NCBI GenBank assembly: GCA_046724395.1
Contig: JBKOWM010000020.1
Coordinates: 12-64,011 of the forward strand
Source of the DNA: Actinomycetota bacterium
GTDB lineage: Bacteria > Actinomycetota > UBA4738 > HRBIN12
Direction of reading: 5' to 3'
DNA length: 64,000 nucleotides
Each line of letters begins with the position of its first letter. Position 1 is the stretch's first letter. The notes beneath the pieces are model-generated. The model was not told where the DNA came from and made no database searches. It saw only the letters and a program-made list of their open reading frames with translations. Position numbers and translations under genes: made by a program. Positions 1,309-58,209 of the stretch are shown here, piece by piece.

Positions 1309-2328
1309 ATGGTGACGACGATGGATCGAACGGAGTTCGAGCGCCAGCTCGAGGAACAACGCACGGTGCTCACCGGCTACTGCTATCGCATGCTCGGCTC
1401 GCCATACGAGGCCGAGGACGCCGTGCAGGAGACGATGCTCCGCGCATGGAAGGCCTTCGATCAGTTCGACGGCCGATCTGCGCTCAGCACGTGGCTCTAT
1501 CGCATCGCGACGAACGTCTGCCTCGACGCCCTGCAGGGGCGCAAGCGGCGCGCCATCCCGATGGACTTGTCCCCCGCGGCGAAGGCGGATGCGCCGCTGC
1601 CGTCACCGGTCTCGTGGGAAGCATGGGTGCGGCCGATCCCCGACGCGGCCGTGCTACCCGACACCGGCGACCCCGCCGAGCTCGTCGAAACCCGCGAGAC
1701 CATCCGGCTCGCGTTCGTCGCGGCGCTACAGACCCTGCCTCCAAAGCAGCGCGCCGTCCTGATCCTGCGCGAGGTGTTGCGCTGGCAGGCGAGCGAGGTG
1801 GCCGAGCTCCTCGGCACCTCCGTCGCGTCCGTCAACAGCGCGCTCCAGCGAGCAAGGGCCACCCTCGACTCGACGGTGATCGGCGACGGCCGCCGGCTCG
1901 ACCCCACGAACGACGACGCGCAGGCCGACCTGCTCGCGCGCTACGTCGACGCGTTCGAGCGGTACGACATGGAGGCGCTCGTGGCGCTGCTCCACGAGGA
2001 CGCAACGCACAACATGCCGCCGTACGAGATGTGGCTTCGAGGACCCGATCAGATGACGCGCTGGATGCTCGGCCCGGGAATCACATGTCGGGGCTCGCGG
2101 CTCCTGCCCGTGCACGGGAACGGATCGCCCGGCTTCGCGATCTACCGGCCGACGGGTCCCGGCGGCAGGCGCGAGCCGTTCAACGTCCACCTGCTGGATA
2201 TCGTGGATGGCCGCATTGCCGGCATCACGTACTTCCTCGACATCGGCCTGTTCCCGCTCTTCGGGCTGCCTCGGGGGGTCGAGGCCAGTCCCGGGAGGGG
2301 AATCGACCAACCGGATGGCAACCGATGA
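1309..2328 (+). CDS. ECF-type RNA polymerase sigma factor with C-terminal SnoaL-like extension (SigJ/ECF41-like)
   Basis: Region 2 'YEAEDAVQETMLRAWKAFDQFDGRSALSTWLYRIATNVCLDAL' and region 4 'QRAVLILREVLRWQASEVAELLGTSVASVNSALQRAR'. ATG at 1309 is in frame with the long ORF; the upstream extension is Arg/Pro-rich junk. Confidence 0.8.
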   Translation: MVTTMDRTEFERQLEEQRTVLTGYCYRMLGSPYEAEDAVQETMLRAWKAFDQFDGRSALSTWLYRIATNVCLDALQGRKRRAIPMDLSPAAKADAPLPSPVSWEAWVRPIPDAAVLPDTGDPAELVETRETIRLAFVAALQTLPPKQRAVLILREVLRWQASEVAELLGTSVASVNSALQRARATLDSTVIGDGRRLDPTNDDAQADLLARYVDAFERYDMEALVALLHEDATHNMPPYEMWLRGPDQMTRWMLGPGITCRGSRLLPVHGNGSPGFAIYRPTGPGGRREPFNVHLLDIVDGRIAGITYFLDIGLFPLFGLPRGVEASPGRGIDQPDGNR

Positions 2329-2537
2329 GTTCGGCGCCACAGCTCCGTCTCTAAAGATAGAGAGAGGGAGGATGGCAGATGGCGTCCCGGCACGGGGCTG
2401 AGTTCGACGCGCACACCACACCGCTGATCCCGGCTCCGACCCTTGTCCTCGGGGTGTCGCCCGCGACCGTGTTCGCCGATGGCCGAACAGGGTCCTTCTC
2501 GGCGACGCGCCGGCGGTTCTGACGCCGGACGGCGCCG

Positions 2538-2912
2538 ATGCCCGGCGATGCCTACGACGGCTCCTGGAGGACTGCGGCCGATGCCTCACGCGACGGGCGG
2601 CTCTCGATCAACGTGCTTCGCCACGGCGAGGTCGTCGTCCTCGCGCCGGGCGAGTCGATGCCGAATGCGCGCGGCGAGTGGGAAGACCGAATGATCGTGG
2701 TCGAGGACGGCGAGATCGAACTCGAGTGCCGCGGCGGGGGGCGCGCAAGGTTCGTTCCCGGCGACGTGCTGTTCGTGTCCGGGCTGTCGGTGAGCGCGAT
2801 CCGGAACGCGGGGCCAGTGTCCGCCGTGCTCGGTACCGTCTCCCGTCACATCGTCCCGACCAGACGTGTCGATGATTCGGGCCGGTCCAACCGGTCGAAC
2901 CCACGGCCGTAA
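2538..2912 (+). CDS. putative cupin-domain protein
   Basis: 'HGEVVVLAPGESMPNARGEWEDRMIVVEDGEIELEC...FVPGDVLFV' resembles the cupin two-motif beta-barrel. Weak RBS and a low-complexity tail. Confidence 0.35.
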   Translation: MPGDAYDGSWRTAADASRDGRLSINVLRHGEVVVLAPGESMPNARGEWEDRMIVVEDGEIELECRGGGRARFVPGDVLFVSGLSVSAIRNAGPVSAVLGTVSRHIVPTRRVDDSGRSNRSNPRP

Positions 2913-2940
2913 TCAGGGCCGTAATCAGGAGGTGCAGACG

Positions 2941-4335
2941 ATGAACGCTTCGCCAACGGAAATCCCGGTCGCCGACCTGCGGGCGGCCGTGAGCGGTCGC
3001 GTGATCGCGCCCGGCGACGAGGACTACGACGTTGCCCGCACCGTCTTTCCGGGTGGAATCGATCGGCGGCCCGGCGCCATCGTGCGGGTCGCGGATGCCG
3101 CCGACGTCGCACGCGTCGTTGAATTCGGCCGCGAGCTGGGCGTCGACATCGCCGTCCGCAGTGGCGGCCACAGCGGCGCCGGTCACAGCGTTTCCGAAGG
3201 CGGGATCACGATCGATCTCGCCGACCTCCGCACGATCGACATCGACACCGACAGGCGGACCGCGTGGGCGCAGACCGGCCTCACCGCGATCGAGTACGCC
3301 AAGGCGGCCGGGGAGCACGGCCTTGTGACCGGCTTCGGCGATACGGGCTCGGTGGGCGTGGGTGGAATCACACTCGGGGGCGGAGTCGGCTACCTCGTAC
3401 GGAGGTTCGGCCTCACGATCGACGATCTTCTCGGGGCCGAAGTCGTGACGGCCGACGCCGAGGTGCTACGCCTCGACGCTGACGCCCATCCCGACCTGTT
3501 CTGGGCGATTCGCGGCGGGGGCGGCAACTTCGGGGTCGCCACACGCTTCCAACTCCGCCTCCATGAGCTGCCGACGGTCGTCGGTGGGATGCTGCTGCTG
3601 CCCGCCACGCCGGAGACGATCCTGTCGTTCCTCGCGGAGGCCGAGGCCGCGCCCGACGAACTCTCGACGATCGCGAACGTCATGCCGGCGCCGCCGATGC
3701 CGTTCCTTCCCGAGGAGCTGCATGGACGGCTCGCGATCATGGCCTTGATGTGCTTCTCGGGCGATGCCGAGTCTGGGGAGAAGGCACTAGCGCCGTTTCG
3801 CGCCATCGCGCAGCCGATGGCGGACATGGTGCGCCCGATCCCGTACCCGGAGATCTATCCGCCAGAGGAGGAGGGCTACCATCCGATCGCGGCCGCTCGC
3901 ACGATGTTCATCGACGCGGTCGACGAGAATTCGGCGCGGACGATGATCGAGCGCCTCGAGGCGTCCGACGCGATGATGCGCGTTGTGCAGATCCGCGTTC
4001 TCGGCGGCGCGATGGCGCGCGTTTCGAACGACGCCACGGCGTTCGCGCACCGCGATCGCCGGATGATGCTCAACGTCGCCGCGCTGGCGAGCGATCCGAG
4101 GGAGTTGCCTCGGCACGAACAGTGGGTCGAATCGTTGGCCGCTTCGATCCAACGCGGCCCCGAGGCCGCATACGTGAACTTCCTCAACGACGAGGGACCC
4201 GAGCGCGTGCGCCAGGCGTACCCGGGAACCACCTACGACCGCCTGGCCGAGGTCAAGGCGCGGTATGACCCGGCCAACCTCTTTCGCCTCAACCAGAACA
4301 TCCCGCCCGCGGTCGCGAGCGGCACCGCGTCATGA
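2941..4335 (+). CDS. FAD-binding oxidoreductase (FAD_binding_4 / BBE-like)
   Basis: 'VRSGGHSGAGHSVSEGGITIDLADL', 'GVGGITLGGGVGYLVRRFGLTIDDL', 'FWAIRGGGGNFGV' are typical of FAD-linked oxidases. ATG at 2941 (MNASPTE) chosen over the upstream Arg-rich extension. Confidence 0.8.
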   Translation: MNASPTEIPVADLRAAVSGRVIAPGDEDYDVARTVFPGGIDRRPGAIVRVADAADVARVVEFGRELGVDIAVRSGGHSGAGHSVSEGGITIDLADLRTIDIDTDRRTAWAQTGLTAIEYAKAAGEHGLVTGFGDTGSVGVGGITLGGGVGYLVRRFGLTIDDLLGAEVVTADAEVLRLDADAHPDLFWAIRGGGGNFGVATRFQLRLHELPTVVGGMLLLPATPETILSFLAEAEAAPDELSTIANVMPAPPMPFLPEELHGRLAIMALMCFSGDAESGEKALAPFRAIAQPMADMVRPIPYPEIYPPEEEGYHPIAAARTMFIDAVDENSARTMIERLEASDAMMRVVQIRVLGGAMARVSNDATAFAHRDRRMMLNVAALASDPRELPRHEQWVESLAASIQRGPEAAYVNFLNDEGPERVRQAYPGTTYDRLAEVKARYDPANLFRLNQNIPPAVASGTAS

Positions 4336-5452: not shown

Positions 5453-5803
5453 CGAAGTCTCGCATTTTCCTATCGGGCGTCCTCTCGTTCGAAACGAACA
5501 GCGCGCGTCCCGCGAGGTGGAAGGTATTGTCGGCCCGTTTAGGACCCACCGCCCGGACCGCTGTGATCCTCGGCGCCTCCGCCGCTCTCGGACTGCCCAT
5601 GCGGTAGCTCACGCGGCCGCAGCCGCAGCTTCCGGTGGCCGACGGCCGTCAGGAGTACCTGGTAGAAGGCGCCGCCACAACCGAGGTGAGAAAGATCTTC
5701 ACCTCCGTAACGTCCTCGTTCGTAAAGGTCTCGATCACATCATCCACAACGAGGCACGCGCGTCCCGAGCCGGTTGGTTACCTGCGCACGTCAGAACGGA
5801 TTA

Positions 5804-5895
5804 TGGCGGAGGCGGCGTGATTCGAACACGCGAGAGCCGGTCAAGGCCCTAACCGCTTTCGAGGCGGTCCCGTTCGTCCGCTCCGGCACGCCTCC
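5804..5895 (-). tRNA. tRNA-Ser (anticodon CGA)
   Basis: Reverse complement GGAGGCGTGCCGGAGCGGACGAACGG...ACCGC-CUCGAAA-GCGGU...GCGTGTTCGAATCACGC-CGCCTCC-G-CCA. Long variable arm; encoded CCA. Confidence 0.8.
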
Positions 5896-5977
5896 GGCGG
5901 CGAGTCTAGCAAGGCGTGCCGAGCGCCGGCGTGGGAGGATGCTCTCATCGTCTCGCCCTACGTGGAGGCCGCGATAT

Positions 5978-6370
5978 ATGGACGCTCGGAAACTGCGGTC
6001 GATCCCCCTCTTCGACGGGCTCTCCCGCAAGGAGCTCGAGCAGATCGCGAGGCAAGCCGACGAGATCGACCTCCCGCCGGGCAAGCGGCTTTTGGACCAG
6101 GGCCGGTACGCGTACGAGTTCTTCGTGATCGCCGACGGCTCCGTGGAGGTGCGACAGGACCGCCATCCCGTCGCCACACTCGGACCGGGCGATTGTTTCG
6201 GGGAGATCGCCCTGCTCGAAAACTCGCCGCGGACGGCGACAATTGAGACGCTGACGCGCGTGCGAGCGATCGTGATGGATTCCCGCGGCTTCTCGGTGAT
6301 GATGTCCGCGTCGCCCACCGTCGCGGATCGCATCCGTGCAATAGAGCAACAGCGCATGTCGAACGGCTGA
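5978..6370 (+). CDS. stand-alone cyclic-nucleotide-binding (CAP effector) domain protein
   Basis: 'FDGLSRKELEQIARQADEIDLPPGKRLLDQGRYAYEFFVIADGSVEV...GPGDCFGEIALLENSPRTATI' is the cNMP-binding beta-roll (FGE...RTA motif). No HTH domain; ATG 5978. Confidence 0.75.
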   Translation: MDARKLRSIPLFDGLSRKELEQIARQADEIDLPPGKRLLDQGRYAYEFFVIADGSVEVRQDRHPVATLGPGDCFGEIALLENSPRTATIETLTRVRAIVMDSRGFSVMMSASPTVADRIRAIEQQRMSNG

Positions 6371-7194: not shown

Positions 7195-8286
7195 CTACGA
7201 CCGCTTCTTCGCGAGCGCCGAGACGGCCTCCAACACGATCCGGTGCGCGAGCATCGCCGTCACGTCGGCGTTGTCGTACGGCGGCGAGACCTCGACGATA
7301 TCCATCCCGACGAGGTCGACGCGGCCGACGATCTGGCGCACCGCGCGGAGCATCTCGCGGGGCAGAATGCCGCCGGGCTCCGGCGTCCCCGTCCCCGGCG
7401 CTGTTCCCGGGTCCACGACGTCGATGTCGACCGAGAGATAAATGCAGTCGGGCCCGTCGAGGGCCTCCGCGATGGAGTCGGCGATGACCGCCTCCGACCC
7501 ACGCTCCTCGATCTCGACCATCGTGTGCCAGCGCAGGCCGCGCTCACGCATCCAGTCGAACGTCGCCCTCTCCGGCCAATAGCCGCGCAGGCCGATCTGC
7601 ACGAAGTTTCTGCCGTCGACCCAGCCCTCCTCGATCAGCCGGCGCATCGGCGTGCCGTGCGAGAGCAGTGACCCCCAGACGTCGTTGCCCGTATCGGCGT
7701 GCGCGTCGAAGTGGACGATGCCGACCGAGCGCGGATGCACGTGGCGCGCGACGGCCGCCGCCGACGGGTATGTGATCGAGTGGTCGCCGCCGAGGACGAG
7801 CGGCGTCGCCCCGGTTCCGGCGACGCGGTACACCTTTTCGTGGATGACGCGGTGCGCTCGCGCGAGCCGCGACGGAACGACGGGGGCATCGCCGGCGTCG
7901 ACGACCGTGACGTGCGCGAACGGCTCGATGTCGAGCTGGATCGACCACGCGTCGACGTTGGCCCAGTGATACGGCGCCCCGCGGATCGCGCGAGGACCGA
8001 AGCGCGCCCCCGGCCGCGCGCTCGTCCCGTCGTCGAGCGGGGCGCCGACGATCGCGACGTCGGCGTTCGCCGCTCGGATGGCCTCCTCGTCGATCGCCCA
8101 GGGCAGCTTGTGGAAGGAGCCCGTCCACCCCGTGTGATACGGAAGGTCTTCGGTCGCGAACTCGTCGAACTCATCCCCGGATGCAAGCTCGCTCCGCTCG
8201 ATGCGAAAGTCTCTTTGAGTCACGTCCGGCTCCGCTCCTGCGCCGATCGGCCCGCGAACCGTACCGGGCCCACCGGCCGCGGACAA
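7195..8286 (-). CDS. speB: agmatinase / ureohydrolase (arginase family)
   Basis: Mn-binding motifs 'GGDHSITYP', 'HFDAHADT', 'SVDIDVVDP'. Confidence 0.85.
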   Translation of the reverse strand: MSAAGGPGTVRGPIGAGAEPDVTQRDFRIERSELASGDEFDEFATEDLPYHTGWTGSFHKLPWAIDEEAIRAANADVAIVGAPLDDGTSARPGARFGPRAIRGAPYHWANVDAWSIQLDIEPFAHVTVVDAGDAPVVPSRLARAHRVIHEKVYRVAGTGATPLVLGGDHSITYPSAAAVARHVHPRSVGIVHFDAHADTGNDVWGSLLSHGTPMRRLIEEGWVDGRNFVQIGLRGYWPERATFDWMRERGLRWHTMVEIEERGSEAVIADSIAEALDGPDCIYLSVDIDVVDPGTAPGTGTPEPGGILPREMLRAVRQIVGRVDLVGMDIVEVSPPYDNADVTAMLAHRIVLEAVSALAKKRS

Positions 8287-8298
8287 TCACAAGGTCCG

Positions 8299-8682
8299 CT
8301 AGGCCTTGGCGATCTGGATGAGGTTGCCGCACGTGTCGTCGAAGACCGCCGTCGTGACACCGCCCATGTCGAGCGGCTCCTGCGTAAACCGGACGCCTCT
8401 CTCCCGAAGCCGCTCGAACTCGGCGTTCACGTCGTCGACCGCGAACGAGGTTGCCGGGATCCCGTCGGCCACGAGCGCCTCCTTGAACGGTCGCGCGGCC
8501 GGATGGGCGTCCGGTTCGAGCAGGAGCTCGGTCCCCTTGGGGTCGTCCGGGGAGACGACGGTGAGCCATCGAGCTTCGCCGAGCGGCACGTCCTTGTTCT
8601 TCACGAATCCGAGGGCGTCGGTGTAAAAGCGGAGCGCCTTCTCCTGATCGTCGACGAGCACGGATGTTATGTAGATCCTCAT
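8299..8682 (-). CDS. VOC/glyoxalase-family protein
   Basis: 'MRIYITSVLVDDQEKALRFYTDALGF...' bba-bbb fold pattern; ATG 8682 overlaps the arsR stop (ATGA). Confidence 0.7.
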   Translation of the reverse strand: MRIYITSVLVDDQEKALRFYTDALGFVKNKDVPLGEARWLTVVSPDDPKGTELLLEPDAHPAARPFKEALVADGIPATSFAVDDVNAEFERLRERGVRFTQEPLDMGGVTTAVFDDTCGNLIQIAKA

Positions 8683-8984
8683 GTGCCTCTCCCTCCGCGT
8701 CTCCGCCGCCATCGCTTCCCGATCTCGTCCAGCGGTGACGTGTCCAGGTGGTGGAACTTGTATCTGCCCTCCCTTCTGGTCTTCACGAGGCCCGCCGACT
8801 CGAGGACGTCGAGGTGTTGCGAGATCGCCTGGCGAGACGACCCGAGGTGGTGCCTCATGGCGAGCCGCGAGCAAAGCTCGAACAGCGTCTGCCCGTCTCG
8901 CTCCGCCAACTCGTCGAGGATCGCCCGCCTCGTTGCGTCTGCGAGCGCGCGGTAGACGTCGCCCACACCCGCGACAATAGGCAA
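8679..8984 (-). CDS. ArsR/SmtB-family transcriptional regulator
   Basis: 'ALADATRRAILDELAERDGQTLFELCSRLAMRHHLGSSRQAISQHLDVLESAGLV' winged-HTH. Confidence 0.8.
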   Translation of the reverse strand: MPIVAGVGDVYRALADATRRAILDELAERDGQTLFELCSRLAMRHHLGSSRQAISQHLDVLESAGLVKTRREGRYKFHHLDTSPLDEIGKRWRRRRGGRGT

Positions 8985-9080
8985 GTGGCGACTTGCCTGT
9001 CAACCCGTGAACGACGCGAGCATCGTGGAATCACCCGGGGCGGTGGCGCGCTGGCGCCGAGGGCACGGGGTGTGCCCGGG

Positions 9081-10241
9081 CTACGTCACGTACGTCACAG
9101 CCAGACCGGCGCCGGCGCCCGCGAGCACGACCCAGCCCGAGTTCGGTCGCCACCGAAGAAGGACGACGAGGGCGACGACCCCGAACAAGACCGTCGGAGC
9201 GTCCACGAACGCCGTGCGAGCCAGCTGCAGCGTCACGCCGGCCATCAGGCCGACGGCGCCGACGTTCACGCCGTCCAGCAGGTCTCCGGTCCATCTGGAG
9301 CGTCGCATCAGGCGGACGATGGGCTGGAGAAGCGCGACGAACACGAAACCCGGCAGGAAGATCCCGATCGTCGCCACAAGCGCGCCTGACACGCCGCCGA
9401 GGAGGTACCCGACGAACGTGGCCGTCGTGAAGACGGGACCGGGCGTGACCTGACCCACGGCGAGCGCATCGAGGACCTGCTGCTGCGTCAACCACCCGAG
9501 CCGGTCGACGAGATCCCCCTGCAGGAACGCGAACAGCACGTAGCCGCTGCCGTAGACGACGGCGCCGAGCTTGAGGAACTCCAGGAAGACCCGCCAGAGC
9601 GCAACCGACGTGGCTTCCGTGGCCGCGGCGAGCGGAAGCACACCGACCAGGAGTGGGAGCAGGGTCGGATGCTCGTCCGTGCGCGCGCGTCCCGCCGCCC
9701 GAGTGAGGGCGACGCCGATCCCGGCGCTCGCGAGCAGGAGCAGCTCGTTCAGGCCGACGAGGTAGAGGGCAAAGACGAGGATCCCCACGCCGACGAGTAG
9801 CCACGAGCGCTTGACCGCGGTGCGACCGAGCGTCAGCAGCGCGACGGCAACGATCGAGACTACGACCGGTCCGATGCCGTACAGCAGCGCCTGTCCCGCC
9901 GTCGTGGCTCCGTAGCGGACATATGCCCAGGCGAGCGCGAGCACGATCAGCATCGCCGGGACGATGAATGATGTCCCTGCCACGATGAGGCCCGGCCAGC
10001 CGGCGCGCAGCAATCCGACGTGGATTGCCATCTCCGTCGAGTTCGGACCGGGGATGAGATTCGTCGCGCCGAGGAGGTCGAGGAACCGCTCGTCGCTCAA
10101 CCAGCGCCGCCGCGTGACGACCTCGTCGTGCATCATCGCGATGTGCGCCGCGGGTCCCCCGAACGCGGTCGTACCCAGCCGAAGGAAAAGAGCCGCGAGC
10201 TCGCGCAGGCGGCGGCTCCGCTCCGCGCGATCGACATCCAC
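9081..10241 (-). CDS. chrA: chromate efflux transporter
   Basis: 'GTTAFGGPAAHIAMMHDEVV' ChrA signature; two homologous membrane halves. Confidence 0.85.
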   Translation of the reverse strand: MDVDRAERSRRLRELAALFLRLGTTAFGGPAAHIAMMHDEVVTRRRWLSDERFLDLLGATNLIPGPNSTEMAIHVGLLRAGWPGLIVAGTSFIVPAMLIVLALAWAYVRYGATTAGQALLYGIGPVVVSIVAVALLTLGRTAVKRSWLLVGVGILVFALYLVGLNELLLLASAGIGVALTRAAGRARTDEHPTLLPLLVGVLPLAAATEATSVALWRVFLEFLKLGAVVYGSGYVLFAFLQGDLVDRLGWLTQQQVLDALAVGQVTPGPVFTTATFVGYLLGGVSGALVATIGIFLPGFVFVALLQPIVRLMRRSRWTGDLLDGVNVGAVGLMAGVTLQLARTAFVDAPTVLFGVVALVVLLRWRPNSGWVVLAGAGAGLAVTYVT

Positions 10242-51640: not shown

Positions 51641-53770
51641 ATGGCCGGTCGGACACACTCCGTCATGAGGTACGTCCCCGTCGACCTAACGAAGACGGAA
51701 CGGCGGCGGCGGCCGACGGGTACGCCGGCGCCGTTGCCCAAGAGCATCGGGCTCAGCGGCCGGCTTTGGGTTGCGGCGGCACTGATCATCGTGGTCTCGG
51801 GCTCCCTCTGGCTTCACGTCTCGGCAGGACCCCTCGATCGTTTCGATGCTGCACTGACGCGCCCCATCGTGGCGCTTCGCACCGACTGGCTCGATGCGCT
51901 GGCCAGAAGCCTGAACTCGGTCGGCTCGCGATGGGGACTCGGTGGGCTCGGCGTCACCGTCGCTGCGCTCGCGATCGTCTTCCGGCGTTTTCGCCACCTC
52001 ATCGTGTTCCTCATCAGTCTCGCGCTGCTGCATCTCGGCTTGGACGCTCTTAACGTCGTCGCTGCGCGCGTGAGACCGCTCGACGTAACGCAGATCGGCG
52101 CCTGGGAGGGCTACTCGGCTCCATCCCGGCCGATCGCAGTTCTGACCGCGCTTGCGATCGCGTTCGCCTTCATGCTCGTTGTGCCAGGGAGGCCGCGCTG
52201 GTACGCGAAACTCGTGATCGTCTTCGGCATCACCGCGGTCGGGCTCCTTCGTATCTACCTGGGCATCGATCATCCAACCGACGTCATGTTCGGGGCGATC
52301 GTAGGTGTGGCCATTCCGATCGCGATGTTCCGGGCGTTCGTTCCCAACGATGTGTTCCCCGTGACGTACCAGCGTCGAGGGAAGGCGGCCCATCTCGACG
52401 TCGGTGGACGCCGCGGAGACGCAATCCGCCGCGCGATGCAGGACCAGCTCGGATTCTCGGTGCTCGACATGAAGCCGGTCGGACTCGCCGCCTCCGGCGG
52501 TTCCACACCGCTCAAGCTGACGGTGATCGATGAGAACGGCGATGAGCGCTCGATCTTCGCGAAGCTCTACGCGAAGAATCACGTCCGCGCCGACCGTTGG
52601 TACAAGCTCGGCCGCGCGATGCTCTATGGGGGGCTGGAAGACGAAACGCCGTTCAAGACGGTTCGACGTTTCGTCGAGTACGAGGATTACACGCTCAGGC
52701 TGCTGGGCGAGTTCGGCTTCCCCACGCCGGCACCCTTCGGCGTCGTCGAGATCACGCCGGAGCGCGAGTACTTGATCGCGATGGAATTCTTCGAGGACGC
52801 CGAGGAGATCGGAAGTGCCCCTGTCGACGACCAGGTCATCGACGAGGGATTGCAGCTCGTCCGGCGTCTGTGGCACGTCGGCCTTGCACACCGTGACATC
52901 AAGCCGGCGAATCTCATGGTCCAAGGCGGCCATCTGCGCCTGATCGATGTCTTCTTCGTCCAGGTACGTCCCTCACCTTGGCGGCAAGCCGTCGATCTCG
53001 CGAACATGATGCTGGTCCTTGCCCTGCGCTCGGATGCCGAGACGGTCTACCGGCGGGCTCTGCAGTACTTCACACCCGACGATCTGGCAGAGGCGTTCGC
53101 CGCTACGCGCGGCGTGGCAAGCCCCACGCAGCTGCGATCGCTCATGAAGCAGGATCGGCCCGAACTCCTGGAGGAGTTCCGGAGGCTTGCTCCAGCACGC
53201 CGGCCGATCCAAATTCAGCGGTGGAGCTTCAGACGCGTCGGCTTGATCGCGTTGAGCCTGCTCGTCGTCGTTCTTGCCGCGTCGTTCGCGGTTGAATTGT
53301 TCTTCCCAAGTCGCGGACAGGTGCTGACGCCCTCGTGCGATACCGATCGAGCGATGATCCTCATGGCACAGGCGGTGCCGTCGGCTACGGAACTGCCGTG
53401 TATCCGCCGTCTCCCGCTCGGCTGGGAGCTCTCGAACGCCACCATCGTGCGCGGGCGGGCGACCATCACGATGGGCGTCGGCGGCGGCACGGGTGTGATC
53501 GTCCAGGTCGGTCGGGCGCCCGTCGAGCCACTCGTCGAGGTGACGCTCTCGGCGAATTGCACAACGCCCGACGGCGCAGGCGGTACTCGAATCATCCGCG
53601 CGGAGGGCGGATGCATCGAGTACACAGCGTCGATCCGGACAAACGACGACGTCATCCCATCATTCGAGTCCGGCGGAGGGCTCGCAACGATGCCACGCTC
53701 TACGCTCGTTTCCTTTGTCGCAAACGAGGAGGAGTTAAAACTCTGCGGCGCCGGCGTCTCGTGTCCGTAG
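51641..53770 (+). CDS. membrane protein: PAP2-like domain + eukaryotic-type kinase-like domain + TM + Cys-rich extracytoplasmic domain
   Basis: PAP2 motif 3 'LRIYLGIDHPTDV', motif 1-like 'ARVRP', motif 2 degenerate. Kinase catalytic loop 'HRDIKPANLMV', with 'IDVFF' where DFG is expected. TM 'RVGLIALSLLVVVLAASFAV', then about 190 aa with 7 Cys. Confidence 0.75.
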   Translation: MAGRTHSVMRYVPVDLTKTERRRRPTGTPAPLPKSIGLSGRLWVAAALIIVVSGSLWLHVSAGPLDRFDAALTRPIVALRTDWLDALARSLNSVGSRWGLGGLGVTVAALAIVFRRFRHLIVFLISLALLHLGLDALNVVAARVRPLDVTQIGAWEGYSAPSRPIAVLTALAIAFAFMLVVPGRPRWYAKLVIVFGITAVGLLRIYLGIDHPTDVMFGAIVGVAIPIAMFRAFVPNDVFPVTYQRRGKAAHLDVGGRRGDAIRRAMQDQLGFSVLDMKPVGLAASGGSTPLKLTVIDENGDERSIFAKLYAKNHVRADRWYKLGRAMLYGGLEDETPFKTVRRFVEYEDYTLRLLGEFGFPTPAPFGVVEITPEREYLIAMEFFEDAEEIGSAPVDDQVIDEGLQLVRRLWHVGLAHRDIKPANLMVQGGHLRLIDVFFVQVRPSPWRQAVDLANMMLVLALRSDAETVYRRALQYFTPDDLAEAFAATRGVASPTQLRSLMKQDRPELLEEFRRLAPARRPIQIQRWSFRRVGLIALSLLVVVLAASFAVELFFPSRGQVLTPSCDTDRAMILMAQAVPSATELPCIRRLPLGWELSNATIVRGRATITMGVGGGTGVIVQVGRAPVEPLVEVTLSANCTTPDGAGGTRIIRAEGGCIEYTASIRTNDDVIPSFESGGGLATMPRSTLVSFVANEEELKLCGAGVSCP

Positions 53771-53796
53771 ACGCGTCATGACGACGGACTCTCGGT

Positions 53797-54489
53797 GTGG
53801 GTCCCAGGACGTGGCGGAGCAGTGGACTTCTGTTGAACCTTGACGATGAGCGCCGGCGCTTCGAGCGCGCTCACGATCCCAGGCGCGTGATGGCCCTGTC
53901 GGACGGTGTGTTCGCGATCATCATCACGCTGCTTGTGCTCGAGATTCGGATCCCCGATCTTACGGACGGGAAGCGCCTCGCCGATGCGTTGCGGGAGATT
54001 CGGCCCTCGTTCGTCGCGTTCGTGATCAGCTTCCTTGTCGTCGCGATAGCATGGACGTCACACCGCGATCTGTTCTCCTTCGTTCGCCTCACGGACCGAA
54101 ATTTGGTGTGGCTAAACGTGCTCTACTTGCTACCGCTCACGCTGCTTCCGTTCGGTGCCGCCCTGATCTCTCGGTACGGTGACCAAACCGTCGCCCTGAC
54201 CCTGTACGGCGTGCTGTTGCTGGCAATCGCGCTAACCAGGCTTGTCATCTGGTTGTACGCGACCAACCGGCCGCAACTGCTGTTCGAGCCGATCGACCGG
54301 CGGTCGCGGAGGGTGGGCGTCTTGACGGTCGTTGTGCCTGCTGGGCTTTGTGTCGTGGCGATCCTGCTGGCGGGGACCGCGCCGACTGTGAGCCTGTCGA
54401 TCTACGCGGGCGTTCCCTTGCTGTACTTCGTGGTGCTGTTTCTCACCCGGGGCAATCCGGCGACGGCAGCCCAGCGCGAGCTGCCCTGA
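53797..54489 (+). CDS. TMEM175/DUF1211-family putative K+ channel
   Basis: 'RVMALSDGVFAIIITLLVLEIRIP' DUF1211 signature helix; 6 TM. GTG start. Confidence 0.75.
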   Translation: MGPRTWRSSGLLLNLDDERRRFERAHDPRRVMALSDGVFAIIITLLVLEIRIPDLTDGKRLADALREIRPSFVAFVISFLVVAIAWTSHRDLFSFVRLTDRNLVWLNVLYLLPLTLLPFGAALISRYGDQTVALTLYGVLLLAIALTRLVIWLYATNRPQLLFEPIDRRSRRVGVLTVVVPAGLCVVAILLAGTAPTVSLSIYAGVPLLYFVVLFLTRGNPATAAQRELP

Positions 54490-54531
54490 ACCGCCTCGGC
54501 GGGCCCGGGCCTCGGATGCGATGCTCCGTGC

Positions 54532-56196
54532 GTGAAGTGGCTGCTGCTGCGTCTCGGCCGGCCGGCGAGCGCCGTCCAGAGCGTCATACGCAACCGTGAT
54601 CTGCGACGCGCCGAGCTGGCGTTTCTCGCCTTCAACGTTGCGGAACCGGCAACATGGATCGCGATTCTCGTGTACGCCTTCGATCGTGGTGGCACGGCCG
54701 CGGCTGGCATCGTCACGCTGGTGCTGCTGGCGCCGGCGGCCGTCGTCGCCCCGATCGCCGCCGCGCTCGGCGATAGGCACTCGCGGAGACGCGTGGTCGC
54801 GATCGGTTACACGCTGCAGGCGGGGGCGACGGCCGCAACCGGGATCGCGATGGTTGCGGACGCGCCTGCGATCCTGGTGTACGCGGTTGCGACGATCGCG
54901 ATGGCGACGTACACAACCGGCCGTCCCGGTCACCACTCGCTGCTGCCAAAACTCGCCTCTTCGCCCGACGAGCTCGCGGCCGCAAACTCGGTTTCGTCGC
55001 TAGTCGAGGGATTGGGCGGCACCGCCGGAACGGCCGGCGTGGCCGTGCTTCTGGCGGCGACGTCCGTCGGCGTCGCATACCTCGTGATGGCCGCCATCCT
55101 CGGCCTCGGGGCGCTCCTCGCGTACGGCGTCCGGGTCGTGCACGACACGAGGCCCCCGAACCGCACGGTCGGTCCGTGGTCGTTCGCCGTCGACGCGGTG
55201 ACGGGGCTTCTCGCAATTGCCCGAGTGCGTGGAGCGGGCGCATTGCTGACCGTCGCAGCGGCGATGGCGCTCGTGTGGGGTACGTTCGACGTCCTCCTCG
55301 TGACGCTCGCGTTCGATCGCCTCGGGATCGGCGCGGCGGGTGTGGGCGCCCTTCACACCTCGATCGCGGTGGGCGTCCTGCTCGGCGCCGCAGGATCGGT
55401 CGCCTTGGTCGGGCGGTCTCGGATCTCACCGACGCTGCTCGGCGGCGCCGTCGTCATGGGTGCCAGCATCGCCGTACTCGGGTTCGGGGACACCGTCGCC
55501 GCTGCTGTGCTCGCGTCGGGCGTAGCCGGGGCGGCGACGACCGTGCTCGACGTCGCCGGGCGGACGTTGCTCCAACGCGCCATCGACGACTCGCTGCTCG
55601 CTCGCGTGTTCGGAGCGATCGAGTCGCTCTGGATGATCGGCTTCGGCGTCGGCGGACCGGTCGCGGCGGCGCTGGTATCGCTGTTTGGCCTCAGCGCTTC
55701 CTTCGTGGTCGCGTCCGCAGTCGTGCCTCTGATCACGCTGTTGGGGTTCCGCGCGCTCGACCGCCTGGAGCAACAGGTCGTCGTTCCGACCCGGCAACTC
55801 GAGCTCATCTCGGCGCTCCCGATGTTCGGACCTCTGCCGAAGAGCGACGTCGAACGCGTGGCGCGCCAGCTCGATCGGCTCAACGTCGTCCGTGGGACCG
55901 ACGTGATCCGGCAAGGTGATGTCGGCGACCGCTTCTACGTAGTCGACGCCGGCGCGTTCGAGGTCCTTACGGACGGCCGCTTCGTCGCGTCACTGTCGGA
56001 GGGCGATCACTTCGGCGAGATCGCGCTACTCAAGGATGTGCTGCGGACGGCGACGGTCCGCGCGACGGTGGACAGCACGGTGTGGGCGCTCGACCAGGAG
56101 GAATTCCTCGCGACGGTCACGGGGATGCCGCAGGCGAAAAGGGCTGCCCACGCGATCTCGGCGGAGCGCCTCCGCGCGAGTTCCCGACGTGAGTAG
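54532..56196 (+). CDS. MFS transporter fused to a C-terminal cyclic-nucleotide-binding domain
   Basis: About 12 TM; C-terminus 'ALPMFGPLPKSDVERVARQLDRLNVVRGTDVIRQGDVGDRFYVVDAGAFEV...GDHFGEIALLKDVLRTATVRA' is a CAP-type beta-roll. GTG 54532. Confidence 0.8.
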   Translation: MKWLLLRLGRPASAVQSVIRNRDLRRAELAFLAFNVAEPATWIAILVYAFDRGGTAAAGIVTLVLLAPAAVVAPIAAALGDRHSRRRVVAIGYTLQAGATAATGIAMVADAPAILVYAVATIAMATYTTGRPGHHSLLPKLASSPDELAAANSVSSLVEGLGGTAGTAGVAVLLAATSVGVAYLVMAAILGLGALLAYGVRVVHDTRPPNRTVGPWSFAVDAVTGLLAIARVRGAGALLTVAAAMALVWGTFDVLLVTLAFDRLGIGAAGVGALHTSIAVGVLLGAAGSVALVGRSRISPTLLGGAVVMGASIAVLGFGDTVAAAVLASGVAGAATTVLDVAGRTLLQRAIDDSLLARVFGAIESLWMIGFGVGGPVAAALVSLFGLSASFVVASAVVPLITLLGFRALDRLEQQVVVPTRQLELISALPMFGPLPKSDVERVARQLDRLNVVRGTDVIRQGDVGDRFYVVDAGAFEVLTDGRFVASLSEGDHFGEIALLKDVLRTATVRATVDSTVWALDQEEFLATVTGMPQAKRAAHAISAERLRASSRRE

Positions 56197-56239
56197 CGGT
56201 GAGTGGAGCCGATGTTCCGGAACCTGTCGCGCGGCCGAG

Positions 56240-57484
56240 GTGAACGAGTGGCGGCTCCGGATACCATCGCCTCCTGCCGTGGAGGAACGCTCGCGCCGTG
56301 AGGTGGCTCGAAGGGCCGGCGTCGACCTGGAGTACGTCGACCGATTGGTCGAGATCGGGATCCTGAAACCTGGCCCGAGGGATACGTTCTCGCCGGGTGA
56401 CGTTCGAAGGGCGCGCTGGGTTCGGAGCTTGGAGCGCGCCGGCGTTCCGCTGGACGAGATGGCCACCGCCGTCCGCCAACGACTTCTTTCGTTGTCCTTC
56501 CTGGACGTGCCCGTGTTCGATCGGTTCGCCGTACTCAGCGACACTACATTCGGCGAGCTGAGTGAACGCACGGGTGTTCCGTTGGAGCTGCTCGAGGTCG
56601 TCCGAGAGGCCGTCGGTTTCGCAGACCCCCAGCCTGGGGACCGCGTGCGCGAGGACGAGCTTTCCGTCGTCGAGGCGATCCAACTCCAGCTCTCGAACGG
56701 ATTCCGGCCCATCGCGATCGAACGGTGGCTCCGGGTCTGCGAAGACAGTCTTCGTCGAATCATCGAGACCGAGACGGATTGGTATGGGACCGAGGTGATC
56801 CGGCCCCTCCTGGAGTCAGGCATGACGGAGGCGGAGATGCTCGAGGCGCAGGCGGACGTGGGGTCCCGCGTCGCCCCCCTCACCGAGCAGGCGACGCTCG
56901 CCATCTACCACGGACAGCAGGAACACGCCTGGAGCAGGGCGTTGGTCGAGTACGTGGAGGGCGCGCTCGACAGGGCCGGGCTGCTCAAGCGGTTGCACCG
57001 TCCGCCGGCCATGGTCTTCCTCGACGTCACCGGGTACACGAGGCTGACGGAGGAGCGCGGAGACCAGGCTGCGGCGGACCTGGCGGCCAGGCTTGCGACG
57101 TTCGTCCGGCGCCGCGCACAGGAACACGGTGGCCAGCCGGTGAAGTGGCTCGGGGACGGCGTGATGTTCTACTTTCCGGACCCCGCCCAAGGCGTCATTG
57201 CCGCACTCGAGATGGTGGACGGCGTTGCGACGCGAGGCCTTCCACCCGCGCATGTCGGGATCCACGCCGGGCCGGTGGTCTTCCAGGAGGGGGACTACTT
57301 CGGCCGGACGGTGAACATCGCGGCGCGGATCGCCGACTACGCGAGACCGGGCGAGGTGCTGGTGAGCCAGGAAGTCGTCGACGCCGCCGCCGGAACGGCC
57401 GTGACGTTTACGGACATCGGGCCCGTCGAGTTAAAGGGCGTGTCGGGCCCCCTTCACCTTCAGACAGCTCATCGATCCTCGTGA
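56240..57484 (+). CDS. class III adenylate/guanylate cyclase with N-terminal MerR-like HTH region
   Basis: Cyclase motifs 'MVFLDVTGYTRLTE', 'VKWLGDGVMFYFP', 'GIHAGPVVFQEGDYFGRTVNIAARIA'. N-terminus 'EVARRAGVDLEYVDRLVEIGILKPG' is HTH-like. Start uncertain (GTG 56240 or 56279). Confidence 0.8.
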   Translation: MNEWRLRIPSPPAVEERSRREVARRAGVDLEYVDRLVEIGILKPGPRDTFSPGDVRRARWVRSLERAGVPLDEMATAVRQRLLSLSFLDVPVFDRFAVLSDTTFGELSERTGVPLELLEVVREAVGFADPQPGDRVREDELSVVEAIQLQLSNGFRPIAIERWLRVCEDSLRRIIETETDWYGTEVIRPLLESGMTEAEMLEAQADVGSRVAPLTEQATLAIYHGQQEHAWSRALVEYVEGALDRAGLLKRLHRPPAMVFLDVTGYTRLTEERGDQAAADLAARLATFVRRRAQEHGGQPVKWLGDGVMFYFPDPAQGVIAALEMVDGVATRGLPPAHVGIHAGPVVFQEGDYFGRTVNIAARIADYARPGEVLVSQEVVDAAAGTAVTFTDIGPVELKGVSGPLHLQTAHRSS

Positions 57485-57525
57485 TTCCGGTCCCGACGCC
57501 TCTCTCAGGGTGGGCTCGAGAGACG

Positions 57526-58209
57526 CTACGAGGTGTCGGCGTTTGCCAACAGCCCTAGTTCTGCAGCGTAGCCGTCGAGGCGGTCCGCCAACTCCTTCGG
57601 GCGGCTGAGTGCGGGCGTGTGACCGCCGTCGATCTCGTCCGGCGTCATCCCCAGACGCTCGCGCGCGACCCTTCGAACGAAGGGAGCGGGGAGCAGGCGG
57701 TCATCGCGACAGAGGATGACTCTCGTCGGGACGGTCGGCCAGGCTTTCAACGGCGATCGCTCCCCCATCCGCGTCTCAGACTGCCTACGTCCACGCTTCA
57801 AGGCCTCCGCCGCAAGCGCTCTCGGGACGTCTTGGTAGAACAGGGCGATCTCATCGTCGTAGTGTTCGCGCGCCTCCTCGTCGTATCCGGTGTTCGCCCA
57901 ATAATCGGCGGGGGCCTCGCCGGGAGCCGGAATCATCGGTGCGACAAGGACGAGCAGCTCGACCGGCACCCGCTCGCACACGAGCGGCGCCGTGAAGCCG
58001 CCCAGCGACTGGGCCACGACGACCACACCGGTCCGAGAACCGATCGCGTCGACGACGGCGTCTGTGTATTCGGGGAGTCCGGCCGCGTCATCGTCACATG
58101 GAAGGTTGGGCGCGACGGTGTCGTGGCCTCGTGCACGCAGCTCGCTTTCGACAAGACGCCAGTACCAGCCGACGTCGCCGGCGCCGTGGATCAAGACGAA
58201 GGCGGCCAT
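57526..58209 (-). CDS. alpha/beta hydrolase
   Basis: SD 'AAGGAGGG' 6 nt before ATG 58209. 'FVLIHGAG', nucleophile elbow 'VAQSLGG'. The long upstream ORF-track extension is discounted. Confidence 0.75.
   Translation of the reverse strand: MAAFVLIHGAGDVGWYWRLVESELRARGHDTVAPNLPCDDDAAGLPEYTDAVVDAIGSRTGVVVVAQSLGGFTAPLVCERVPVELLVLVAPMIPAPGEAPADYWANTGYDEEAREHYDDEIALFYQDVPRALAAEALKRGRRQSETRMGERSPLKAWPTVPTRVILCRDDRLLPAPFVRRVARERLGMTPDEIDGGHTPALSRPKELADRLDGYAAELGLLANADTS

Follow-up and report, generated by a model that had tools for sequence, protein, structure and literature searches.

An actinobacterial MFS transporter with a fused cyclic-nucleotide-binding domain and a conserved phosphate-binding cassette, a member of a large family of such fusions

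Is an actinobacterial carrier of the major facilitator superfamily (MFS) genuinely fused to a CNBD (cyclic-nucleotide-binding domain), is that domain equipped to bind a nucleotide, and does it take its signal from the cyclase gene encoded next to it? These questions are raised by an open reading frame (ORF) in a 64 000-nt stretch of contig JBKOWM010000020.1 (hereafter the window; Actinomycetota bacterium, GenBank assembly GCA_046724395.1), in which a sequence-only reading had described an MFS core of about 12 transmembrane (TM) helices joined to a C-terminal CAP-type beta-roll.

The ORF opens with a GTG codon and encodes 554 aa, ending in a stop codon at positions 56194–56196 (Table 1). The GTG start is supported by homologues of equal length that align from residue 1, one of them (P0001) 99% identical and also of 554 aa, another (P0002) 75% identical with 100% coverage. 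A false fusion of two separate genes, created by a frameshift, by misassembly or by a wrongly called ORF, has next to no probability and we consider it refuted, as the architecture is common to many independent full-length relatives. More than 140 of these, of about 550 aa, match across both domains in one unbroken alignment, a continuous protein is encoded likewise at 80 genomic loci and the linker between TM12 and the sensor domain is short and conserved. The match to the MFS plus CNBD architecture does not arise by chance, and the fusion described earlier is borne out by Pfam matches to MFS_1 and cNMP_binding, by the 12 helices and by the structural model.

Table 1. Features of the transporter gene and its neighbours (nucleotide positions in the window; residues of the 554-aa protein).
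Feature	Residues	Positions	Strand	Basis
TMEM175-type potassium-channel homologue, upstream, 42-nt gap		53797..54489	+	Pfam TMEM175, E 1.3e-26
Whole gene, MFS transporter with C-terminal cyclic-nucleotide-binding domain		54532..56196	+	ORF list, Pfam, same-length homologues
N-terminal cytoplasmic helix	1-24	54532..54603	+	AlphaFold2 helix 2-20, alignment conservation
12-helix MFS core	25-404	54604..55743	+	Hydropathy, AlphaFold2 helices, Foldseek, TIGR00900 residues 38-386
MFS motif A, TM2-TM3 cytoplasmic loop (G80-D81-R82-H-S-R-R-R87)	80-87	54769..54792	+	Read from sequence
Cytoplasmic TM10-TM11 loop (DVxGxTLLQRxxxDxxLxRVFG)	340-361	55549..55614	+	Conservation
Linker from TM12 to sensor domain	405-417	55744..55782	+	AlphaFold2 helix 406-416
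Cyclic-nucleotide-binding domain	418-554	55783..56193	+	Pfam, sequence matches, Foldseek, DSSP
Phosphate-binding cassette (FGEIALLKDVLRTATV)	494-509	56011..56058	+	Ungapped alignment with PKG cassettes
Rv1264-type class III adenylate cyclase, downstream		56240..57484	+	Pfam Ad_Cy_reg and Guanylate_cyc

The membrane part matches Pfam MFS_1 (PF07690; superfamily TC 2.A.1) over residues 41–290 (E = 1.5e-17; 64.0 bits against a gathering cut-off of 33.4), as do 56 of 56 relatives. In the hydropathy profile, 12 hydrophobic peaks lie within residues 29–398, and the AlphaFold2 model (pLDDT 86, pTM 0.81) contains 12 long helices and a beta-roll, in agreement with the estimate of about 12 helices. Hydropathy, the model and Foldseek together place these helices in the two six-helix bundles of an MFS protein, with structural matches to SPNS2, VMAT2, MdfA and NorA at TM-scores (target) of 0.67–0.77; a sequence search of solved structures with the core returned no match at E ≤ 0.01. 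Foldseek found no solved structure spanning both domains, the best whole-query TM-score being 0.58 for a match to the MFS part only. The C-helix of the sensor domain, its 'lid' (residues 531–554), is modelled with low confidence (pLDDT < 50).

With the cassette of the sensor domain set aside, conservation across the protein is highest in the cytoplasmic loops. Motif A (consensus GxxxD[RK]xGR[RK]) is present in the TM2-TM3 loop, with Ser instead of the consensus Gly at position 84; of its residues, D81 and R82 recur in no fewer than 95% of 142 relatives, and the mean conservation of the segment is 0.78. The loop between TM10 and TM11 (0.76) is second only to motif A among the segments of the protein, and D340, V341, R344, Q348, R349, R358 and F360 are invariant in the alignment of close homologues; we infer that this loop is a candidate site of contact with the sensor domain. 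In the N-terminal helix, residues G9, P10, P11, A14, V18 and N21 are nearly invariant in close homologues, and conservation is lower across the wider family (mean 0.48). The linker contains one residue, L409, that is invariant in the close-homologue alignment.

The nearest curated relatives of the 12-TM core are the DHA3 H+ antiporters (TIGR00900, TC 2.A.1.21) and the enterobactin exporter EntS (NF007792), which are also the best curated transporter matches in 56 of 56 close family members. The match to TIGR00900 covers nearly the full profile (positions 15–364 of 364) at 89.7 bits against a curated cut-off of 319.6, and that to EntS scores 34.5 bits against a cut-off of 324, so that, judged by its profile scores, the window protein is a relative of the DHA3 family and, by NCBI's criterion, not a member. 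Neither the DHA3 nor the EntS family has a fused sensor domain, unlike the window protein. Weaker matches of the core, to Tet(V), Mef(A) and a ryptide exporter, are all to exporters. The protein is thus probably a secondary-active carrier of the DHA3/EntS-like exporter branch and a proton-coupled efflux carrier, an assignment of function taken from the nearest relatives, the protein's own scores lying far under the cut-offs of both families.

At the C terminus, the Pfam scan identified cNMP_binding (PF00027) at residues 452–527 (E = 1.2e-17; 64.1 bits against a gathering cut-off of 27.5). According to DSSP on the model, the domain consists of N-terminal helices, an eight-strand beta-roll (residues 448–521) and the following helices B and C. 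Foldseek recovers the same roll with flanking helices, aligning it to a CNBD of PKG I (4ku8_C; TM-score 0.86, rmsd 1.6 Å), and its matches also include HCN2, SthK and CNGA1. In sequence, the domain as a whole matches the CNBDs of PKA, PKG and HCN channels (HCN2, E = 5e-15). The FGE...RTA signature noticed by the sequence-only reading is located at F494-G495-E496 and R505-T506-A507, forming a canonical cassette, its Glu and Arg nine positions apart, that aligns with PKG cassettes without a gap. Careful alignment confirmed both the Glu and the Arg on which the assignment had been made to depend: G495, E496, A498, L499, R505, T506 and A507 are each kept in 138–141 of 142 relatives (36–99% identity). 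The near-invariance of Gly-Glu and Arg-Thr-Ala across this set argues for selection on nucleotide binding.

As to the ligand, the curated entry that matches the sensor best is, in 56 of 56 members, the CNBD of the mycobacterial cAMP-activated protein acetyltransferase Pat (NF058543; best E = 4.3e-15). The CNBD of Pat binds cAMP, and cAMP is the predicted ligand here as well; cGMP may be an alternative, since the Thr that follows the cassette Arg also occurs in cGMP-selective PKG domains. No curated family lies closer to the sensor domain than Pat, but the output domain of Pat is a GNAT acetyltransferase and not a transporter. A CRP model matched the CNBD part only, and weakly (E = 3.6e-05, residues 439–553), and no helix-turn-helix DNA-binding family of the CRP/FNR type scored in curated profile searches of the window protein. 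Nor did any ion-channel family, with its six-TM pore, selectivity filter and C-linker, the membrane part being MFS. The HCN, CNG and MloK1/SthK channels have a homologous CNBD and follow the same logic of a C-terminal cytoplasmic sensor, but they combine a tetrameric 6-TM pore with a C-linker, whereas the window protein is a 12-TM carrier of the monomeric type that lacks a C-linker.

The suggestion that nucleotide gating is unusual for an MFS carrier stands in one respect, as literature searches found no experimental study of any MFS-CNBD fusion, and fails in another, because the architecture is abundant, annotated in databases and already catalogued. The fusion is encoded at no fewer than 545 loci in species-representative genomes, mostly of soil Actinomycetota with some Chloroflexota, and comprises 3835 clusters at 50% identity (E ≤ 1e-30). 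MFS-CNBD fusions appear as a catalogued class of MFS fusion in a 2023 review (PMC10710835), which credits the catalogue to Willson, Dalzell, Chapman & Thomas (2019, Microbiology 165:419). As presented in that review, the class consists of single polypeptides in which a CNBD lies C-terminal to an MFS core, the architecture of the window protein, and a regulatory role of the CNBD has been proposed. The window protein is one more member of this class, with nothing qualitatively new beyond its membership.

Two further systems invite comparison. Rv3728 and Rv3239c of Mycobacterium tuberculosis are proteins of about 1050 aa that combine an MFS permease, a cNMP-binding domain and a C-terminal patatin/NTE-like esterase region. 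They go under the label 'conserved two-domain membrane proteins', and McCue et al. in 2000 reportedly described their architecture. Likened by architecture, they share with the window protein an MFS permease and a cNMP-binding domain in an actinobacterial host; the esterase-like third region is a feature of theirs, as residue 554, right after the CNBD, is the last of the window protein and Pfam found no third domain behind it. A published list of MFS efflux pumps includes the two (PMC6300501). As a functional precedent that has been characterised we found only SLC9C1, a Na+/H+ exchanger of sperm with a fused CNBD on the cytoplasmic side; when cAMP binds there, the activity of the exchanger is modulated (PMC13095418). 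Like the window protein, SLC9C1 is a secondary carrier with a fused CNBD and not a channel, but it is eukaryotic and its non-homologous membrane part has an NhaA/CPA-type fold with 13 TM helices and an added S1-S4 voltage-sensor domain.

The gene immediately downstream, as the sequence-only reading had it, does encode a class III cyclase on the same strand, with Guanylate_cyc (E = 9.3e-12) and Ad_Cy_reg (E = 6.6e-10) domains. Its start is uncertain (GTG at 56240, 56279 or 56303), its regulatory domain extends over approximately 56408–56884 and its catalytic domain over approximately 57008–57439. Both domains align with Rv1264 (chain 1y10_A; E = 2.1e-23), the pH-responsive prototype cyclase of M. 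tuberculosis, and the KxxGD motif, the metal-binding Asp residues and the GD(W/Y)FG motif are retained. On the other side, the arrangement of a TMEM175 gene before the transporter recurs in a 99%-identical contig (L084); TMEM175, PAP2-kinase and other neighbours in the window are absent from 80 other loci. When 883 ORFs flanking 85 loci were clustered, no gene neighbour proved common to the whole family and none hinted at the substrate. The clusters reflect lineage-specific synteny only, as with a subtilisin-type peptidase-like cluster (labelled from the look of its example sequence) and a small protein at Gaiellaceae-type loci.

Transporter and cyclase could form a dedicated, co-transcribed pair in which the cAMP gating the carrier is supplied specifically by the adjacent Rv1264-type enzyme. 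The two genes lie on the same strand, separated by 43–106 nt depending on the start codon, no terminator-like site was found in 53600–57700 and the arrangement is identical in L084. At four loci (the window locus, L017, L006 and L075) a same-strand cyclase starts less than 1 kb downstream, and L006 has an orthologous Rv1264-type cyclase 1.6 kb upstream. Four such cases compare with about 0.6 expected by our own estimate, which assumes uniform placement of the approximately 15 flanking cyclase genes, and this excess makes a loose, recurrent association of the family with cAMP-signalling genes plausible. (The downstream gene at L080 was dropped from the count of cyclases, being a BTAD regulator with a beta-propeller.) A dedicated pair is nevertheless unlikely. 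The downstream gene is unrelated in the orthologue of 75% identity (L082; BLASTP E = 0.58), those of 66% and 65% identity (L081 and L083) have convergent, unrelated genes, and a cyclase catalytic domain is found within 6 kb at 12 of the 85 loci, leaving 73 with none in that range. The cyclases that do occur nearby vary in architecture (STAND-TPR, zinc-ribbon-AAA, Rv1264-like), and the genomes of these lineages may just be cyclase-rich. Thus, the proposal that substrate flux is controlled by the adjacent cyclase is unsupported family-wide; the pairing is local to the window's copy and is no rule of the family.

Beyond the two-domain architecture, the intact and conserved cassette, the fold of both domains in the AlphaFold2 model and the size of the family, the reading that we favour, and regard as reasonably likely, is that of a proton-coupled MFS exporter tuned allosterically by cytoplasmic cAMP from the general pool. 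The single CAP-type CNBD follows the last TM helix at a distance of about 13 residues and would lie beneath the cytoplasmic face of the carrier. Binding of cAMP, its putative ligand, would move the cassette and the C-helix and alter contacts with the motif A loop, the TM10-TM11 loop and possibly the N-terminal helix; the altered contacts would bias how the two six-helix bundles rock between inward and outward states, so that the rate of transport would track cellular cAMP. That cAMP would most likely come from the general pool, to which the adjacent Rv1264-type cyclase would contribute, rather than from a dedicated partner. A bolder version has the carrier extrude cAMP itself or a cAMP-linked metabolite, opened by cAMP on its own tail; at high cytoplasmic cAMP it would serve as a valve for overflow or secretion. 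It would fit a core related to exporter families, an intact cAMP-type cassette and the recurrence of the family near adenylate cyclases; moreover, Actinobacteria release cAMP, and we know of no exporter assigned to this release. We hold it to be improbable, as the neighbouring genes vary widely and many genomes have several paralogues, tandem pairs (L064, L037 and L054) included, which fits diverse substrates better than a single one. The C-terminal domain might also be a structural or oligomerisation module that binds no ligand, or might bind a ligand other than a nucleotide. CNB-fold domains of both kinds exist, the cyclic-nucleotide-binding homology domains of KCNH channels being ligand-free and some sensors of the CRP/FNR family binding non-nucleotide ligands, and the lid helix is poorly predicted. 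The cyclic-phosphate contacts Gly-Glu and Arg-Thr-Ala are, however, near-invariant in 142 relatives down to 36% identity, which would be unexpected had nucleotide binding been lost, and we give this explanation very little credence.

Should the carrier prove to export cAMP under the control of cAMP, it would supply the missing route by which Actinomycetota release cAMP and would be the first second-messenger-gated MFS carrier demonstrated, sitting here beside an Rv1264-type cyclase and a TMEM175-type K+ channel. More generally, post-translational control by second messengers is poorly explored for the secondary transporters of bacteria, and CBS, UspA, PAS and CNB domains fused to MFS carriers have already been catalogued. 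The family described here is large and compact (approximately 550 aa, with one sensor domain and a short linker) and is confidently predicted by AlphaFold, so that it would offer a convenient model for how a ligand-binding domain biases the alternating access of an MFS carrier.

The gene at 54532–56196 encodes an MFS core followed by a C-terminal cyclic-nucleotide-binding (CNB) domain, as the sequence-only reading proposed: its ORF boundaries were exact and both Pfam domains scored above the respective cut-offs, MFS_1 on residues 41–290 (E = 1.5e-17; 64.0 bits against 33.4) and cNMP_binding on residues 452–527 (E = 1.2e-17; 64.1 bits against 27.5). In a 19-residue hydropathy scan, residues 29–398 showed 12 hydrophobic peaks, and the TM2–TM3 loop carries MFS motif A (G80-D-R-H-S-R-R-R87). 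The GTG start is supported by the homologues P0001 (99% identity, 554 aa) and P0002 (75% identity, 100% coverage), which have the same length and align from residue 1. Thus, the MFS-CNB arrangement is real and not a chance match. The window segment 54001–56000, which overlaps this membrane-protein gene, has a strongly negative AT skew (−0.266), probably a codon-composition effect of the hydrophobic residues.

Transporter gene and its neighbours in the window
Feature	Coordinates	Strand	Basis and remarks
PAP2/kinase-like membrane protein, 709 aa	51641-53770	+	Pfam; upstream of the TMEM175-type gene
TMEM175-type potassium-channel homologue	53797-54489	+	Pfam E 1.3e-26; 42-nt gap upstream of transporter
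Transporter (MFS-CNB)	54532..56196	+	ORF list; GTG start; 554 aa
Rv1264-type adenylate cyclase	56240-57484	+	Pfam Ad_Cy_reg and class III catalytic domain

Among solved structures, the final 148 residues of the transporter match the CNB domains found in PKG, in PKA regulatory subunits and in HCN channels, at E = 1.1e-36 for the best whole chain and 5e-15 for the HCN2 domain. The cassette FGEIALLKDVLRTATV aligns without gaps with those of PKG, e.g. FGEAALIHNTQRSATI, and has the two residues that hold the cyclic phosphate, Glu and Arg, at a spacing of nine residues. Across 56 aligned homologues (49–76% identity), G495, E496, A498, L499, R505, T506 and A507 do not vary, and they are retained in 138–141 of the 142 relatives in a wider set (36–99% identity). 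Both points on which the reading had been set to fall, failure to score as cNMP_binding and loss of the cassette Arg and Glu, were checked and came out in its favour.

Which nucleotide would be bound is less readily read from the cassette. cGMP-selective PKG domains typically place a Thr after the cassette Arg, but bacterial cAMP binders such as CRP also have Ser or Thr there, so this residue does not settle the selectivity. In each of the 56 members, the sensor domain has its best curated match in the CNB domain from the mycobacterial acetyltransferase Pat, which binds cAMP. The neighbouring cyclase, in turn, aligns with Rv1264 of M. tuberculosis (1y10) across both domains (E = 2.1e-23) and retains the Asp residues for metal binding together with the lysine of KxxGD and the aspartate of GD(W/Y)FG; in class III cyclases, these residues mark adenylate specificity. 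Because of the Pat match and the adenylate-type neighbour, cAMP is the more likely putative ligand.

The transporter core had no match among solved structures by sequence. An AlphaFold2 model built on the homologue alignment was confident (mean pLDDT 86, pTM 0.81) except for the poorly predicted final C-terminal helix, and comprises, in order, 12 long helices, a short helical linker (residues 406–416), the CNB N-terminal helices, a beta-roll (448–521) and two C-terminal helices. In Foldseek searches of the PDB, the core matched SPNS2, VMAT2, MdfA and NorA (target TM-score 0.67–0.77) and the tail matched the PKG I CNB domain (4ku8_C; TM-score 0.86, rmsd 1.6 Å); no solved chain spanned both. The best NCBIfam transporter models in all 56 members were TIGR00900 (DHA3 H+ antiporter) and EntS, with Tet(V), Mef(A) and a ryptide exporter as weaker matches. 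Since these are exporters without exception, the core is a DHA3/EntS-like carrier and probably exports its substrate; all scores were below the curated cut-offs, which places it outside every curated subfamily. Leaving the cassette aside, conservation is highest in two cytoplasmic segments, the motif A loop, with a mean conservation of 0.78, and the loop between TM10 and TM11 (residues 340–361; 0.76). A domain held only 13 residues past TM12 could plausibly make contact with these candidate surfaces.

The fusion had been described as unusual, which overstated its rarity. When a single genome for each species was scanned, at least 545 MFS-CNB loci were found, the best 80 of which come from soil Actinomycetota MAGs (Gaiellaceae, Thermoleophilia, Solirubrobacteraceae) and some Chloroflexota. 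A profile search of 1.84 billion representatives at 50% identity gave 3835 proteins at E ≤ 1e-30, with match no. 150 still at 6e-111 and spanning both domains, and a word-indexed search with the transporter gave 2607 proteins at E ≤ 1e-5, the best 120 of which all carry PF00027 and PF07690 and are mostly ∼ 550 aa long, with a few shorter fragments. The transporter is a new member of a known and abundant MFS-CNBD architecture. Rv3728 and Rv3239c of M. tuberculosis have a cNMP-binding domain. Both are listed among MFS pumps (PMC6300501), and fusions of MFS transporters to CNBDs, PAS domains and UspA are described in a 2023 review citing a 2019 survey (PMC10710835); in our literature search, no MFS-CNBD protein turned up that had been studied experimentally. 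In every feature that could be examined here, the transporter agrees with the MFS, the CNB-domain family and the catalogued MFS-CNBD fusion class. It does not belong to DHA3, EntS, the Rv3728 type, the channels or CRP/FNR.

Several relatives depart from the common form. Side-by-side paralogues occur in tandem (L064, 4225–7614; L037, 5470–9503) or convergently (L054, 5992–9332), which suggests family expansion with diversified substrates. In P0136, P0172 and P0244 the MFS core is followed by a tandem pair of CNB domains, and P0124 has a closely related core with a 130-aa C-terminal part lacking any Pfam match. The profile search also matched P0121, P0122, P0123, P0126 and P0234, proteins of 1551–3779 aa with 9–16 matched CNB-domain stretches, which are unrelated to the transporter. 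Within the window, a second CNB protein (5774–6370, + strand; up to 198 aa) has cNMP_binding at residues 99–178 (E = 3.2e-16), no other domain, and a CNB region 32% identical to the transporter's sensor domain. ORFs of ∼ 135 aa at roughly 2700–3250 and roughly 7620–9040 in L041, L046, L058 and L059 may be putative stand-alone CNB-domain proteins.

A cyclase does lie immediately downstream, on the same strand and 43–106 nt from the transporter stop, depending on which GTG (56240, 56279 or 56303) is its start; no terminator-like site was detected in 53600–57700, and co-transcription is possible. The further claim, that this enzyme controls substrate flux, has weak support. The arrangement recurs in the 99%-identical contig L084 and is missing from the next relatives. 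The gene downstream of the orthologue in L082 (75% identity) is unrelated to the cyclase (BLASTP E = 0.58), as are the genes convergent to the orthologues in L081 (66%) and L083 (65%). With an HMM built from catalytic domains, cyclases were found within 6 kb in 12 of 85 loci. Four of the 12, namely the window, L017, L006 and L075, have a cyclase that begins under 1 kb downstream and shares the strand of the MFS-CNB gene, against ∼ 0.6 expected if ∼ 15 flanking cyclase genes were placed uniformly over ∼ 12 kb and two strands, and the architectures of the four differ (Rv1264-like, STAND-TPR, zinc-ribbon-AAA). This excess hints at a recurrent association of MFS-CNB genes with cyclases; a conserved pairing is not supported. 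In L017, two paralogous cyclase-STAND NTPase-TPR proteins flank the MFS-CNB gene, one per side (1634–4219, − strand; 7698–10151, + strand). In the window cyclase, an additional MerR/FtsR-like helix-turn-helix stretch, scoring below cut-off for both MerR_1 (E = 0.0034) and FtsR (E = 1.6e-6), apparently lies at the N-terminus, ahead of the regulatory domain.

Flanking-ORF clustering around the relatives showed lineage-specific synteny only and gave no substrate clue. The TMEM175-type gene is kept beside the transporter in L084, and an orthologue (49% identical) of the 709-aa membrane protein, in which a PAP2 phosphatase domain is joined by a weak protein-kinase/RIO-like region and a C-terminal part containing Cys, adjoins the transporter orthologue in L082 (3722–5893, − strand) in reversed orientation; neither gene is present in the 80 more distant loci.

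The best-supported reading is of a putative proton-coupled DHA3-like exporter, in which cAMP binding at the fused C-terminal CNB domain would bias the alternating-access cycle. Among characterized proteins, its nearest analogue in function is SLC9C1, a Na+/H+ exchanger that cAMP modulates via a fused CNBD (PMC13095418) and that has a different fold; the CNG, HCN and MloK1 channels share the sensor domain and not the membrane part. The value of the finding lies in the family rather than in the window copy: MFS-CNBD proteins are a tractable system in which to study how second messengers control MFS carriers.
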